A stretch of DNA of 64,000 nucleotides from an uncultured Thermoleophilia bacterium (GCA_963772095.1 CAVYVU010000017.1:31402-95401), one strand, 5' to 3'; shown: positions 6,192 to 14,955, numbered from the stretch's first letter. Made by a program: numbers and translations. The notes: generated by a model from the letters alone, not told the origin.

Positions 6192-7499
6192 CTACCTCGA
6201 CGTAATGGTCCCGACGATCGTCCACGAGCGGGATCGTGACACGCGTCCCTTCCTTGCCCAGGCCGACTCCGTCCAGTTTGCCTCGGACCGCGGGCTCCGG
6301 CATCTTCGCGACCCGCTCAGCCTCAGGCGTCTTCGCGACTCGCGTGATCGGTGATGTGGTAGAAGGTCTCGCGATACCGATAATGGATCTTGCACGACTC
6401 CCAGTGCTCCGGGATCAACGGCGTGAGTGCGCAGACTTGTCCACGTCCAGACTGGAGCACCGATAAGTGTCTCCACGACAGCCGGTACATCCAGCCCGCC
6501 GCCCCGGTGTACCAGGTCCAGCCGCCCCGTCCCGTATGCGGCGGCGCACCGTAGATGTCCGCGCTCATGACGTACGGCTCCACTTTGTAGAGTTCGCTCA
6601 GCTCCGGCCGGTCCGCCGTGGTGGACTGGATTGAGCATGGCGAACAGTTCCCACGCGCGCTCCGTGTCGCCCATCATGGCAAACGCCATGACGGCCCAGA
6701 TCGCGGCATGGGTATACTGGCCGCCGTTCTCCCGCACGCCGGGCACGTACCCCTTGATGTAGCCGGGCTCAAGAGTCGGATGTGTCGAACGGCGGCTCGA
6801 GCAGCTGGATCATGCCTGCGCTCGCGTCGCACCAGGAGCTTGTCCACCGCCGCCATGGCCTCGCGGGCTCGCCCTGGGTCTCCCGCCGCCCGATATCACC
6901 GCCCAGCTCTGGCTGATCGAATCGATGTGGCATTCGTCGTTCACCGACGAACCGAGGGGGGTGCCGTCGTCGAAGTATGCCCGCCGATACCAGCCGCCAT
7001 CCCACGCATGGGCCTCGATATTGGCCCAGCAGTTCCTCGGCCTGCCCGGCGCACACTTGGCCAGCCTCCGTCGTCTCCCCGATTCCGCGCCAGCTCCGCG
7101 AACAGCTGCAGGTTGTGGTAAAGGAACCAGGCCAGCCAGACGCTTTCTCCCCTGCCGTGCACGTCCGACAAGGTTCATGCCATCGTTCCAGTCGCCGGTC
7201 TTCATCAGCGGCAATCCATGGCGCCCAAATTGCAGGCCGTGCTTGAGGGCACGCACGCAATGCTCGTACAGCGTGGCGACGTCAGTCGACTGCTGCGGAA
7301 GATCGTAGTAGGCCTCCTCTTCGGGGCCCAATTCCCGGCCCTCGAGAAAAGCCACGGACTCGTCGAGGACACCGGTGTCGCCGGTCGAGGACACATAGCG
7401 ACACGTCGCGTATGGGCAGCCAGAGATAGTCGTCGGACGAATGGGTCCGTACCCCATGCCCCGCGGGAGGATGCCACCAGTGCTGCACGTCGCCCTCAC
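6192..7499 (-). pseudogene. cgs: C-terminal GH94 (glycoside-phosphorylase-like) domain of the cyclic glucan synthase, broken by at least 6 frameshifts
   Basis: GH94 motifs are spread across 5 reading frames: LWLP (main ORF), GDWNDGMNLVG and AWDGGWYRRAYFDDGTPLGSS (6810..7499), GESVWLAWFLYHNLQLFAELARNRGD (6941..7171), LLEPPFD (6769..7260), PGVRENGGQYTHAAIW (6192..6746), SADIYGAPPHTGRGGWTWYTGAAGWMYRL (6323..6583). Confidence 0.7.
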
Positions 7500-13400: not shown

Positions 13401-14955
13401 GCTGGACGCGCTCGGCGGCATCGGTGAAGTCCGTTAGCAGCGCGAAGAAGAGGTTGGGGTCGCGATTCCCTAGATACCGTATCTCGAGCGCTTCCAGCAG
13501 GTCGGAAACATCCTCCTCATTGCCGAGTAGTGTCGGAACGACCACCATCGTCCGGTGCTGCGCGGGGATACCCTCGGAAAAATCCAGCCGGGGCAGCACT
13601 CGCGGAGGCACGGTGACGGTGATCAGCGTATTGACGATAGGGATGACCATCGCCGAGGCTGACACGAAGCCGACTATGGCAAAGAAGATGGACCTGCCGA
13701 CACCCTGGTCGAACGTGGCCACATAGGCCACAAGAAAAGCCGCGGCCAGCGCGCTGAGCAGCAGGATCGGTGCAAGGTATAGGAAGAGCCGAAAAGGTCG
13801 TGCGACCCGCGTGGTGCGCACCATAAGCGGAACCTTGCTGCCCATGGCCCGCTCAAGCGCGGGCCGGCCTTTTCCCACGAGGTAGTAGCCGGCGTGGGCG
13901 GTACGATCCTGGCTTCCCAGCCGTTCGACCGAGGCCTGGGCCAGAGATACGGCCGTCCGGGCGGCGTCCCGCTCGTTCTTCACACTCCCCCGAGTTACGG
14001 CTTCGATGGCATGCCGGTAGCGGTCTCGGGTGGGGAAATCCTGCGACGCGTAGACTCCCGCCGGATCGAGACGGAGGAGATGCTCCACCAGGCTAAGCTC
14101 CTCGACGAACTTCCCCCAATCCATCGCGGAGATGAAACGCAGGCTCCCCACGCTGTTCGCGATCGAGATCTGATCCGTCGCCGCAGTCCGGCTGGCCGCC
14201 TCCAGGAGTTGAACCGCACTTATTCCCTGCTCCGAGAGCCGATGCTCCAGCCAGGTCTGGATGAATGAGAGCGCCGGCCCCTGGCCCTGCAGACGGGCGT
14301 AGAAGTCCTCCACGAACGGGGCTGTCAGAGGCACATCGGCGTCTGCGAACTCCGCGAGCACGTGGATGAGATGCTTCGGGTCGGCCTCAGCCGCCGCCAG
14401 CATGCGGTCGGCCCAGGCGATGGCAGCGTCTCGCTCTTCCCGGCGCCGTGCGATCCGCACCCCCACGTGACGGATGTTTTCAAGCAAAGCCAGCCGTAGC
14501 ATGATCGGAAAAGCCCACAACTCGCCCAGATTGAGCGGCTGAGCGGTCTGATAAGCAGCGACGAAAGCCGCGGCATTGTCGCTGTCGACCCGACCATCCT
14601 GATGGGAGATCAGAGAGAGGGCCACATCGTAGATCCGGGGAAGACCAGCCGCCGGGCCAGGACCGACTCGTGGGAGTTGTCGACTGTACCGCCGCGGCAG
14701 ATCGCGACGGGCCACGGCTATCTGCTGCTCTATGAGATAGAAGTTGTCGAGCAACCAGGCTTCTGCCGGCATGACCCGCTCTCCGGCCATGGTGGCGGCG
14801 GTCACCAGGTCGTAGGCAGCGACGAGCGCTCGCTCGTTCTCAGCTAACCGGCCGAGCAGCCTATCGCGCCCCGGGCGTCGATCGATGGTGTGACCGTTCC
14901 CGAGCGCAACAGCGCGATACTTCAACTGGTCGACGCTGAGCAATTCCGAACGCAT
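7282..14955 (-). CDS. cgs: cyclic beta-1,2-glucan synthase (Cgs/NdvB/ChvB family), intact N-terminal 2557 aa (membrane GT domain plus start of the GH94 region)
   Basis: uninterrupted 7.67-kb ORF; N-terminal LLDNFYLIEQQIAVARRDLP region, multi-TM glycosyltransferase core, C-terminal WWHPPAGHGVRTHSSDDYLWLP GH94 signature. Confidence 0.85.
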   Translation of the reverse strand: MRSELLSVDQLKYRAVALGNGHTIDRRPGRDRLLGRLAENERALVAAYDLVTAATMAGERVMPAEAWLLDNFYLIEQQIAVARRDLPRRYSRQLPRVGPGPAAGLPRIYDVALSLISHQDGRVDSDNAAAFVAAYQTAQPLNLGELWAFPIMLRLALLENIRHVGVRIARRREERDAAIAWADRMLAAAEADPKHLIHVLAEFADADVPLTAPFVEDFYARLQGQGPALSFIQTWLEHRLSEQGISAVQLLEAASRTAATDQISIANSVGSLRFISAMDWGKFVEELSLVEHLLRLDPAGVYASQDFPTRDRYRHAIEAVTRGSVKNERDAARTAVSLAQASVERLGSQDRTAHAGYYLVGKGRPALERAMGSKVPLMVRTTRVARPFRLFLYLAPILLLSALAAAFLVAYVATFDQGVGRSIFFAIVGFVSASAMVIPIVNTLITVTVPPRVLPRLDFSEGIPAQHRTMVVVPTLLGNEEDVSDLLEALEIRYLGNRDPNLFFALLTDFTDAAERVQPGDEKLISLARAGIEALNVAYREDRPCIFYFFHRPRVWNPHDRVWMGWERKRGKLEQFNTLLLDARTRSHGSDGVPSAEAPLGEFVSMTSPEFTASSGSAFSDIIGDLSVLGSIRYVITLDTDTQLPRDAAYTLIGNMAHPLNRPLYDAKKGRVTEGYAILQPRASISLTSTSGSWFTRLFAGEAGIDPYTRETSDVYQDLFGEGSFVGKGIYDVEAFAQAVHGRFPENLVLSHDLLESGYARSALVTDIDLIEEHPVSYAMEASRRHRWTRGDWQLAGWLLPRVPGPEGKRRPNPLSLLSVWKLFDNLRRSLVPAALIALLLGGWLWGPGPAWLWDLLAAGVLFLPPLLTTAIELVRKPEEREWPVHLVLTGKSAIRPLVRALLSLVLLPYDALVYLDAILRSGVKMLFTRRGLMLWHMPSYRRRNARRTPFGFLLEMWVAPLLAIVLAVVLISVPGARLSGWQFAIPVLLAWLVAPIVGWWISKPLRPAIAGLTVQQQAFLRTLSRRTWRFFADFVGPDHNWLPPDNYQEYPSPMVAPRTSPTNMGMGLLANLAARDFGYISTGEFLHKTDRAFRTMEKLERFRGHFYNWYDTQTLLPLHPEYISSVDSGNLAGSLLALRAGLSELRNQPVLCDRDFQGIEDTLLALASHLPSPAEPEVEKQIKSLQGLFHTDVPRGETAAAAQALLDELCLATKELVARPSVEGAGEFHYWAHALHRQCRRFRDDLRSLVPESRCFATVPTLGELAGRGELDEVMRVAAADGAAEVDALDGQPGATGVAAVPDEPRPLSTATVSAANKRLEEIDSLIARCHDLAAMDFDFLYDPSRDLLSIGYDIGERRRDPGWYDLLASEARLTSFLLIAEGQAPQKHWFALGRLLTSHGGDISLISWSGSMFEYLMPRLFLPSYENTLLDQACRAAVSRQIDYGRQRHVPWGISESCYNAVDMNQIYQYRAFGVPGLGFKRGLAEDLVIAPYATALALTVAPREACRNLETLTADGLLGDYGMYEAVDYTPSRILPGTNHAVVRCFMAHHQGMSLLALGHALLDGPMQRRFLSDPLVRTTELLLQERVPKHTVTVHPREGETAEAGRVIAAETGAIHRVLTDPNTPLPEIHLLSNGRYHVMVTNAGGGYSHWRDLAVTRWREDVTCDCSGTFIYLRDRRTGDYWSTAYQPTRKKAERYEAVFVQARAEYRRLDDAIEAHTEVSVSPEDDVEIRRVTLTNLSAEAREIEVTSYAEVVMAPLNADLAHRAFSNLFVQTEILPRHGAILCRRRRRTPEEEIPWMFHLLAVPGVVGGDASFETDRARFIGRGRTAANPLAFDDNRRSSLSNTEGPVLDPIVAIRRSVTVPLDESVTVQVISGVAETREAALALVEKYGDRRFVERAFEMAWFQSQEVLRLLNVTEADAQLYGRLATSVIHGNASRRAPASIIARNQLGQSGLWRFGISGDLPIVLVRIAEVTRIDLVRQALQAHAYWRIKGLAADLVILIEDFSGYRAVLHDEIMALINVGPEAAVFDKPGGVFLRRGDELSEEDRVLFQTVARVVLVDTAETFAEQVQRRLPAERLPGALEPSRQPAIEKVAPPARRDSLFHNGLGGFTLDGREYVISLKPGESTPAPWANVIASPYVGTVVSESGSAYTWVENAHEFRLTTFHNDPVSDSSGEAMYIRDEETGTFWSPAPLPVPGRSGYECRHGFGYSVFEHDESKIFSEMTTYVAMDAPVKFVVVKLRNHSGRDRRLSLTAYWELVLGEWRHSNLMHIVTEKDADTGALFARNPYSRQWSDRVVFAQTSGARRSVTASRTEFIGRNGSLADPAAMRRARLSGRTGAGLDPCAVIQTQVDLADGQEQDIVFVLGSAADVDEAQRLMQRFSGPAGARQALEAVWAHWSRTLGAVYVETPDEALNVMANGWLVYQTLSSRIWGRSGYYQSGGAYGFRDQLQDTMALMHASPWLAREQLVRCAGRQFREGDVQHWWHPPAGHGVRTHSSDDYLWLPIRDVSLCVLDRRHRCPRRVRGFSRGPGIGPRRGGLLRSSAAVD

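Follow-up and report, generated by a model that had tools for sequence, protein, structure and literature searches.

[quoted passage not shown] It raises the question whether these frameshifts are carried by the organism or were introduced into the deposited sequence. The evidence reported below favours the second answer: the gene is most likely a full-length, ordinary cgs, and the 12 indels found in its tail are probably errors of the deposited consensus.

The identity of the gene was established by comparing its product with solved structures. A phmmer search against PDB retrieved A. tumefaciens Cgs (8RF9/8RF0, E=0, 1584 bits), with aligned stretches at query residues 5-584, 627-1162 and 1322-2514, and at residues 2481-2872 of the corrected tail; residues 10-1120 of Cgs are matched by the first 1320 residues of the protein. 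The whole gene and its in-frame parts are listed below, where TiCGS is the T. italicus enzyme.

6181..14955, minus strand: whole cgs gene, from ATG (14955-14953) to TAA (6183-6181); about 2920 codons once 9 extra bases are removed and 3 missing ones restored
7282..14955, minus strand: uninterrupted ORF of 2557 aa; genuine Cgs up to residue 2513, then 44 residues read out of frame past the first frameshift
13030..13047, minus strand: DxD motif of the GT84 glycosyltransferase, TLDTDT (residues 637-642), aligned with TLDADT of A. tumefaciens Cgs (8RF9)
12832..12846, minus strand: GIDPY (residues 704-708), its Tyr aligned with Y694 of A. tumefaciens Cgs (IDPY in 8RF9)
10126..11958, minus strand: cyclase (GH189) domain, by phmmer against 8WY1 (TiCGS cyclization domain), E=1.6e-126
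10834-10854: LLASEAR, aligned with the TiCGS acid/base E1356
10705-10719: SMFEY, aligned with TiCGS E1400
10579-10596: WGISES, aligned with the TiCGS nucleophile E1442
10288-10305: AHHQGM, aligned with TiCGS H1536/H1537
7417..10069, minus strand: in-frame GH94 phosphorylase region; two supersandwich domains and the first ~109 profile positions of the catalytic domain (Pfam)

In A. tumefaciens, Y694 is the start point of the glucan chain (PMC10901819); the roles of the cyclase residues are those described for TiCGS (PMC10834661). The supersandwich domains correspond to PF06165, with the best stretch at residues 1629-1881, and the in-frame part of the catalytic domain covers residues 2406-2513. 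A crude Kyte-Doolittle scan delineated six hydrophobic segments (residues 387-416, 419-449, 856-875, 898-920, 949-982 and 979-1003), which would represent the six transmembrane helices flanking the GT domain. No NCBIfam match was obtained for either part of the protein. The preliminary description was right in reporting a Cgs-type gene of full length: its N-terminal, GT84 and cyclase parts are intact, collinear with A. tumefaciens Cgs, and carry the expected motifs. Judged by its sequence, the gene is a true Cgs/NdvB/ChvB homologue and a standard member of a well-studied, very widespread family, for which structures of the complete enzyme and of the cyclase domain have been solved.

That the gene might encode instead another GH94 phosphorylase fusion (cellobionic-acid, cellodextrin or stand-alone 1,2-beta-oligoglucan phosphorylase) is suggested by the labels "cellobiose phosphorylase" or "GH36-type glycosyl hydrolase" given in some databases to fragments of close homologues, but is extremely improbable: among solved structures the best matches are A. 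tumefaciens Cgs, over its full length, and the T. italicus cyclase domain, while cellobiose and chitobiose phosphorylases reach 120-137 bits, and stand-alone GH94 phosphorylases as a group 120-143 bits, over the C-terminal part only, and the match of the N-terminal 1320 residues to Cgs points the same way. A stand-alone phosphorylase (about 800-1100 aa, lacking GT84 and cyclase) is ruled out by the full-length match.

As deposited, about 400 codons at the end of cgs are out of frame. Minus-strand ORFs in other frames are found 3' of the 2557-aa ORF, at 6810..7499, 6941..7171, 6192..6746 and 6323..6583. Pfam searches on the ORFs located profile positions 1-109 of the GH94 catalytic domain at the end of the 2557-aa ORF, and positions 149-285, 194-222, 328-369 and 378-415 in four downstream fragments, so that a single domain is spread across three frames. 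Frame changes were mapped by frameshift-aware protein-to-DNA alignment, using three intact homologues as references, and indel positions were refined with five references. The features of the tail are as follows.

6184..7416, minus strand: remainder of the GH94 catalytic (alpha/alpha)6 domain and C-terminal tail; 12 one-base indels, stop-free when corrected
7182..7184, minus strand: GAT codon of the GH94 catalytic acid, the second D of GDWND (corrected residue 2591), aligned with D2528 of A. tumefaciens Cgs
6325..7416, minus strand: the 12 frame-change sites, 9 one-base insertions and 3 one-base deletions
about 7413-7417, 7159-7160, 7060-7072, 7023-7028, 6881-6885, 6820-6821, 6774-6775, 6613-6615 and 6325-6349, minus strand: one extra base at each of the 9 sites
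about 6477, 6454-6460 and 6434-6439, minus strand: one missing base at each of the 3 sites

Both methods agree that, as had been noted, the given sequence breaks the reading frame of the catalytic domain. The proposed gene boundaries were correct at the start (14955) and not at the end: at position 6192 a fragment in another frame stops, and the TAA of cgs itself lies at 6181-6183. The breaks had been said to set in exactly at the catalytic motifs, which is approximately right: the first one, at 7416, falls after residue 2513 (DDYLWL), 78 residues before the catalytic Asp and at about position 109 of the 420 in the catalytic-domain profile. The catalytic GAT codon lies behind it, in a frame other than that of the 2557-aa ORF. 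Programmed frameshifting was rejected as an explanation, there being 12 sites, in both directions, without a common slippery motif.

After indel correction the whole GH94 domain is recovered without stops, with the catalytic Asp codon in place, and the corrected product of about 2920 aa ends in ...HYVEVELA. The corrected tail shows 51.5% identity to A. tumefaciens Cgs over 392 aa. It is 72-76% identical to its homologues, compared with 72-79% for the upstream part against the same sequences; the broken/intact identity ratio is 1.03, against 1.05 +/- 0.02 in intact homologues. The quality of the tail was further evaluated on alignment columns conserved among 76 homologues. At the cut-off of at least 97% conservation, the broken part keeps 128 of 131 columns and the intact part 207 of 209; at the cut-off of at least 90%, the figures are 171 of 175 and 298 of 306, respectively. 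Two of the three columns missed at the stricter cut-off fall where the indel correction itself dropped a codon. The excess of substitutions at family-conserved positions, relative to the intact part, by which a pseudogene might be recognized is therefore absent from the tail in this comparison. Frameshift-aware alignment likewise revealed none of the nonsense codons, larger deletions or deletion bias expected of a pseudogene: the corrected tail contains 0 in-frame stops and all events are of 1 base, with insertions and deletions in a 9:3 ratio. The replacement of a conserved Gly by Lys near the catalytic Asp (PLMKTGDW, corrected residue 2585) counts against an artefact.

Frameshifts were also mapped over the whole window, by following the order of Pfam domains on frame pieces, the GC3 frame plot being too noisy. 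At least six further genes, unrelated to cgs, are broken likewise; they are listed below with the Ku and LigD locus of the window.

16056-16919: 3-hydroxyisobutyrate-dehydrogenase-like gene, broken
23270-24494: M24 peptidase, split
26469-28105: phosphoglucomutase, 5 indels (insertions to deletions 4:1), 0 stops
37966-41686: Ku and LigD
42709-44089: GH3 gene, at least 3 frame pieces
48626-50246: TPP enzyme, split
61138-63559: molybdopterin oxidoreductase, at least 4 pieces

Indels are gathered in patches of about 1.1-1.4 kb each (6.3-7.4, 26.8-27.9, 42.7-44.1 and 61.9-63.3 kb), with clean genes of 2-7 kb in between. Since the same damage affects at least six unrelated genes, the GH94 breaks are best explained as consensus errors. 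At least 5 of the 9 insertions in cgs lie outside homopolymers, as do most of the indels according to the five-reference refinement; the pattern therefore does not match the classic error signature of 454, Ion Torrent or Nanopore, a point against the artefact. Patchy consensus error, where the quality of a draft or metagenome-assembled contig is locally poor, is nevertheless the most likely source of the 12 indels, which are probably not mutations in the organism.

The main alternative is that the frameshifts are real and recent, and that Cgs ends after residue 2513, having lost its GH94 catalytic acid along with the greater part of the (alpha/alpha)6 barrel; glucan would still be made and cyclised, without phosphorolytic control of its length. 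The N-terminal 2513 residues indeed form a clean ORF with every GT84 and cyclase residue, and every indel lies in the last ~1.1 kb of the gene, with none in the 7.5 kb upstream of the first one, a distribution which selection on a functional truncated protein would also produce. We consider this alternative unlikely. Bacterial mutation spectra show roughly 5-10 base substitutions per indel, and neutral decay would predict 60-120 substitutions, with some 18-35 of the conserved columns altered and a few stops, whereas only 3-4 altered columns, corresponding to the background rate, and no stops are seen. Twelve indels accompanied neither by stops nor by an excess of conserved-site substitutions thus argue against real decay, which should have left many of both. 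Bacterial pseudogenes are, moreover, biased toward deletions, and the insertion bias observed here runs in the opposite direction. About 1 in 7 genes of the window, phosphoglucomutase included, would have to be a very young pseudogene hit several times. As to function, the A. tumefaciens catalytic-acid mutant D2528A shows a minor effect and is nearly wild type, so that phosphorylase activity is dispensable there, but truncations within the C-terminal part (1-1540 and 1-1846) lose function (PMC10901819); the earlier suggestion that the truncated enzyme might still make glucan is accordingly weakened, such a product being not clearly functional. That the breaks mark a lineage with a naturally truncated Cgs, which lost the phosphorylase barrel and kept synthase and cyclase, is likewise improbable. 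If true, it would be a modestly interesting natural truncation, and a natural experiment on the dispensability of length control and of the C-terminal scaffold.

A more radical reading takes the patches themselves as real, produced by a mutational process that makes indels only and acts in local clusters (error-prone repair of double-strand breaks, for instance), or by strain mixtures collapsed into the consensus. The window would then record a clustered, insertion-only process striking many genes. The confinement of indels to short patches between clean genes and the presence of Ku and LigD in the window are in keeping with it, but every patch would inactivate its gene, central-metabolism genes included, and patchy consensus error accounts for the pattern much more simply. 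No process known to us inserts single bases at a dozen scattered sites within a kilobase and leaves neither substitutions nor larger deletions, and we hold this reading to be very improbable. Consensus error remains the preferred explanation: with indels only, 0 stops, conserved positions kept as upstream and at least six other genes hit, the frameshifts do not look like genuine decay. The preliminary description had itself allowed that a GH94 domain intact after read correction would leave simply a full-length cgs, and this is what the gene most likely is; an in-frame, active GH94 domain is expected in the cell.

Breakage of cgs in the same manner is found in public assemblies of long-read style, L081 (ENA contig_18047) and L083 (Solidesulfovibrio sp. 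GCA_054814355.1), where single-base indels also cut the gene into several called ORFs. In L081, as in the window gene, an insertion follows DDYLWL, where the Leu and Pro codons meet; the inserted base and the exact position are different, and L081 carries only two indels in the C-terminal half, compared with 12 here. The common site is best read as a coincidence, whose chance is estimated at about 0.2 for the number of broken sequences and of sites that were compared. A frameshift at this junction in P0002 was considered as a real conserved event and rejected, L081 being error-ridden, the inserted base being another one, and 1 of the 12 sites being common. Out-of-frame translation products of such assemblies (P0002, P0180 and P0235) are already present in public protein collections. 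The case of cgs is mainly a caution: until the contig is polished, neither its gene calls nor any pseudogene counts or metabolic inferences based on it should be trusted.

The occurrence of Cgs outside Rhizobiales, previously taken as notable, turned out to be common. In a pattern scan of genome contigs, 593 of the first 600 hits in species-representative genomes encode relatives, from many phyla: Gamma-, Beta- and Deltaproteobacteria, Verrucomicrobiota, Planctomycetota, Acidobacteriota, Nitrospira and others. Of the 80 species-representative loci fetched, again from many phyla, 56 have a frame that runs uninterrupted for 2600 codons or more. The best match among the hits listed in the pattern scan was 76% identical; metagenome contigs scanned with an exact 30-mer gave no more than relatives of 71% identity that share the conserved word by chance. 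Exact-protein look-ups for the 2557-aa ORF and two neighbours gave no match, and another neighbouring product is 100% identical to the public protein P0271, which shows that the contig is public (NCBI and ENA).

By homology to the Cgs of A. tumefaciens, Brucella and T. italicus, the protein would produce cyclic beta-1,2-glucan from UDP-glucose: the GT84 glucosyltransferase would extend the chain on a tyrosine-linked primer, the GH189 cyclase would close the ring by transglycosylation, and the C-terminal GH94 phosphorylase would trim chain length. The likeness to A. tumefaciens Cgs extends to the order of the parts (N-terminal domain, two membrane helices, GT84, four membrane helices, cyclase, GH94), to the composition of GH94 (two supersandwich domains and an (alpha/alpha)6 barrel) and to size (about 2920 aa in the window gene, about 2830-2870 aa in A. 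tumefaciens). The DxD motif, the Y694 equivalent and the cyclase residues are kept, as is GDWND (D2528) in the corrected tail. The window gene differs in belonging to a high-GC lineage outside Rhizobiales, with neighbours of anaerobe type (aldehyde:ferredoxin oxidoreductase, EtfAB and an Fe-S oxidoreductase). An ABC exporter of the ndvA/chvA type, an accessory and non-defining feature, was sought with Pfam, and about 50 scanned ORFs of the 64-kb window gave no ABC_tran or ABC_membrane match. T. italicus Cgs (8WY1; PMC10834661) shares the cyclase domain, with E1356, E1400, E1442 and H1536/H1537 conserved; it differs in that the cyclase domain alone was characterised there, and the two phyla are distant. 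Uncharacterised Cgs homologues from metagenome-assembled genomes, such as P0001 (Thermoleophilia MAG), L001 (Gammaproteobacteria MAG) and L002 (Thiohalophilus thiocyanatoxydans), are 73-79% identical over the C-terminal half; the homologue search took the C-terminal 799 aa of the 2557-aa ORF as query. Frameshift-aware alignment shows an intact tail in the closest relatives, P0001 and P0003, and L001-L003 each encode the protein in one frame of about 2900-2930 codons, with the GH94 tail in frame, unlike the window gene as deposited.

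As deposited, the cgs gene begins with a 2557-aa ORF on the minus strand (7282-14955), followed downstream by shorter minus-strand ORFs, in other frames, between 6192 and 7499. By Pfam, the long ORF holds only the first 109 of the 420 profile positions of the GH94 catalytic domain, and positions 149-285, 194-222, 328-369 and 378-415 are found in four downstream fragments; the disrupted C-terminal GH94 domain of the preliminary description is therefore real in the given sequence. P0001, P0003 and P0054, three homologues whose C-termini are intact, were aligned to the DNA by a frameshift-aware dynamic programme, and all produced the same picture of 12 frame changes without any in-frame stop. 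Their positions were narrowed by a refinement with five references, by which at least 5 of the 9 insertions lie outside homopolymers. Since one unbroken frame runs from 9690 to 7414 (tblastn) and the gene is otherwise one continuous ORF, all 12 events fall in the last 1.1 kb. The corrected product, of about 2920 aa, ends in ...HYVEVELA, and the stop codon is the TAA at 6181-6183; the gene therefore spans 6181-14955, the previously proposed end at 6192 being the stop of an out-of-frame piece.

Features of the cgs gene
Residues 637-642, minus strand: DxD motif, TLDTDT (alignment to Cgs)
Minus strand: IDPY, its Tyr corresponding to Y694 of A. tumefaciens Cgs (alignment)
Residues 1370-1573 of the 2557-aa ORF, minus strand: 'glucoamylase'-type domain PF10091 (Pfam)
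2557-aa ORF, minus strand: two GH94 supersandwich domains (Pfam)
7182-7184, minus strand: GAT codon of the GH94 catalytic acid (alignment)
About 7416, 7160, 7060-7072, 7023-7028, 6884, 6820, 6774, 6614 and 6325-6349, minus strand: one extra base each, nine sites (alignment)
About 6477, 6454 and 6434-6439, minus strand: one missing base each, three sites (alignment)

The gene is an ordinary and most probably complete cgs of a known, widespread family. Its N-terminal 1320 residues correspond to residues 10-583 and 593-1120 of A. tumefaciens Cgs, where Y694 is the residue from which the glucan path is measured (PMC10901819). Within the cyclase domain, LLASEAR, SMFEY, WGISES and AHHQGM match E1356, E1400, E1442 and H1536/H1537, respectively, of the T. 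italicus enzyme (TiCGS), in which E1356 is the acid/base and E1442 the nucleophile (PMC10834661); six hydrophobic segments were located in the expected places by a hydropathy scan. The corrected tail aligns with residues 2417-2810 of A. tumefaciens Cgs (E=3e-126, 51.5% identity) and keeps GDWND, the second Asp of which corresponds to D2528, the GH94 catalytic acid (PMC10901819). The GAT codon lies behind the first frameshift, so that the catalytic Asp is not encoded by the ORF as written. The TiCGS cyclization domain (8WY1) is the second-best PDB match, after full-length A. tumefaciens Cgs (8RF9/8RF0). Cellobiose and chitobiose phosphorylases reach 120-137 bits, covering the C-terminal part alone. 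The rival reading as another kind of GH94 fusion is refuted.

Of 8000 candidates scored with a C-terminal query, 4896 proteins matched at E<=1e-20. In contigs taken at one genome per species, relatives are encoded by 593 of the first 600 pattern matches listed, and among the matches listed they come from Gamma-, Beta- and Deltaproteobacteria, Verrucomicrobiota, Planctomycetota, Acidobacteriota, Nitrospira, Actinomycetota and others; in 56 of the 80 fetched loci, one frame of 2600-3030 codons runs without a break. With relatives in so many phyla, and a Cgs characterised from the Firmicute T. italicus (PMC10834661), a cgs outside Rhizobiales is not notable, contrary to what had been supposed. 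No NdvA/ChvA-type ABC exporter was found among about 50 ORFs of the 64-kb window compared with Pfam.

The deciding question was whether the sequence behind the first frameshift shows decay. The corrected C-terminal 1161 residues were aligned with 76 homologues, spanning both the part upstream of the first frameshift (intact) and the indel-corrected part downstream of it (broken).

Conserved alignment columns kept by the window
Family-invariant columns: intact part 126/127, broken part 76/78
Columns conserved >=97%: intact part 207/209, broken part 128/131
Columns conserved >=90%: intact part 298/306, broken part 171/175

Two of the three broken-part misses in the >=97% set, an Ile at 2828 and a Cys at 2837, each in place of Leu, fall in the cluster of three missing bases, where the correction dropped a codon. 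Averaged over the family, the identity of the window is 0.66 for the intact part and 0.68 for the broken one, a broken/intact ratio of 1.03, versus 1.05 +/- 0.02 (range 1.02-1.10) in intact homologues. No substitution decay was detectable in the corrected tail by this 76-homologue alignment, and stop codons numbered 0. In bacterial mutation spectra, base substitutions outnumber indels several-fold to tenfold; at that rate 12 neutral indels predict 60-120 substitutions in 1.2 kb, together with tens of altered conserved residues and a small number of nonsense codons. The indels of the tail are insertion-biased (9:3); bacterial pseudogenes are deletion-biased.

Damage of the same kind was found in at least six other, unrelated genes of the window:
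26469-28105, minus strand: phosphoglucomutase/phosphomannomutase, broken into four frame pieces, which share out its four Pfam domains
23270-24494, minus strand: creatinase/prolidase-type M24 peptidase, two frames with a break at about 23630-23730 (profile positions 4-75 in 23634-24494, 94-206 in 23270-23728)
15579-16919, minus strand: 3-hydroxyisobutyrate-dehydrogenase-like gene (16056-16919), sense lost after '...AINRGG', stops at 16179 and 16056; probably one or two frameshifts near 16180-16250
42709-44089, minus strand: GH3-family glycosidase, at least 3 frame pieces, with Pfam positions 54-145 out of frame with 242-315
48626-50246, minus strand: thiamine-diphosphate enzyme, frameshifted at least once near 48950-49015; 48906-50246 encodes the N-terminal and middle domains, and 48626-49015, in a different frame, the C-terminal TPP-binding domain
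61138-63559, plus strand: molybdopterin oxidoreductase with pyrogallol-hydroxytransferase-like N-terminus, at least 4 ORFs in differing frames

The phosphoglucomutase gene was taken as the control for the breaks in cgs. Compared with a clean 544-aa homologue (P0265), it shows five one-base frame changes, 4 insertions and 1 deletion, at about 27926, 27598, 27134, 26815 and 26793, with 0 stops and an end-to-end identity of 50%. Genes of 2-7 kb between the damaged patches are clean. Altogether at least 26 indels occur in the 64 kb, in patches of about 1 kb. This distribution is in keeping with a consensus that is weakly supported in places, for instance through low coverage, gap fills or missing polishing; the indels are not of homopolymer type and so do not point to one particular sequencing technology.

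Other observations concern neighbouring genes. A separate carboxymuconolactone-decarboxylase-family gene lies downstream of the 3-hydroxyisobutyrate-dehydrogenase-like gene, in the same frame, and the GH3 gene has a long Ser/Thr-rich linker behind its N-terminus. A xanthine-dehydrogenase-type molybdopterin subunit (21920-23242, minus strand), seemingly without the second cofactor-binding domain, and a creatininase-family ORF (3075-3740, minus strand), beginning only at profile position 56, may represent further breaks or truncations. Ku and full-length LigD (phosphoesterase, ligase and primase-polymerase domains) are adjacent and intact at 37966-41686, plus strand, constituting a complete pair for bacterial non-homologous end joining. 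At 54668-58633, minus strand, the EtfB and EtfA genes precede that of a membrane Fe-S oxidoreductase of 705 aa with CCG domains (54668-56785), 100% identical to database protein P0271; its nearest named relatives are from Deferrisomatales and unclassified 'bacterium' MAGs.

From these data we infer that the disrupted GH94 domain is most probably an artefact of sequence quality that also affects many other genes of the contig; neither exact look-ups nor a scan of metagenome contigs for an exact 30-mer found a second assembly from the same species. Alternatively, the frameshifts could exist in the organism, cutting Cgs short. If a functional truncated protein were under selection, indels would likewise be confined to the region downstream of the first one, a point in favour of this reading, but a real truncation does not account for why substitutions and stops are lacking, why insertions predominate, or why phosphoglucomutase and five other genes show this pattern too. 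As to whether a truncated enzyme would still make glucan, as had been suggested, the A. tumefaciens D2528A mutant, nearly wild type, speaks in favour, and deletion of all or part of the C-terminal domain (1-1540, 1-1846), which abolishes function, speaks against (PMC10901819). The truncation results point to a scaffolding role of this domain (PMC10901819), and a protein ending within the (alpha/alpha)6 barrel might well misfold.

Broken or partial copies are also present in other assemblies. In Solidesulfovibrio sp. GCA_054814355.1 (L083, 4435-13177) cgs is cut into two overlapping ORFs of 1714 and 1340 codons. A 4.7-Mb contig of GCA_041320475.1 (L082, 10001-12835) carries a 944-aa GH94-only gene, corresponding to Cgs from residue ~1860 onward, which adjoins flagellar export genes and has its own tail frameshifted after VDQRLVRRE. 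Six public products (P0002, P0042, P0046, P0072, P0180 and P0235) have out-of-frame tails or bodies, deriving from frameshifted assemblies; such products can rank high when the query itself carries an out-of-frame tail. In ENA contig_18047 (L081) a 76%-identical cgs is cut into five called ORFs, and a one-base insertion (12320-12335) occurs at the Leu-Pro codon junction that follows DDYLWL, where the window has one too (7413-7417). The inserted base differs, however, and only 1 of the 12 window sites is shared; taking into account the number of broken sequences and sites compared, the chance of such a coincidence is estimated at ~0.2, and the shared insertion was judged to be coincidental.
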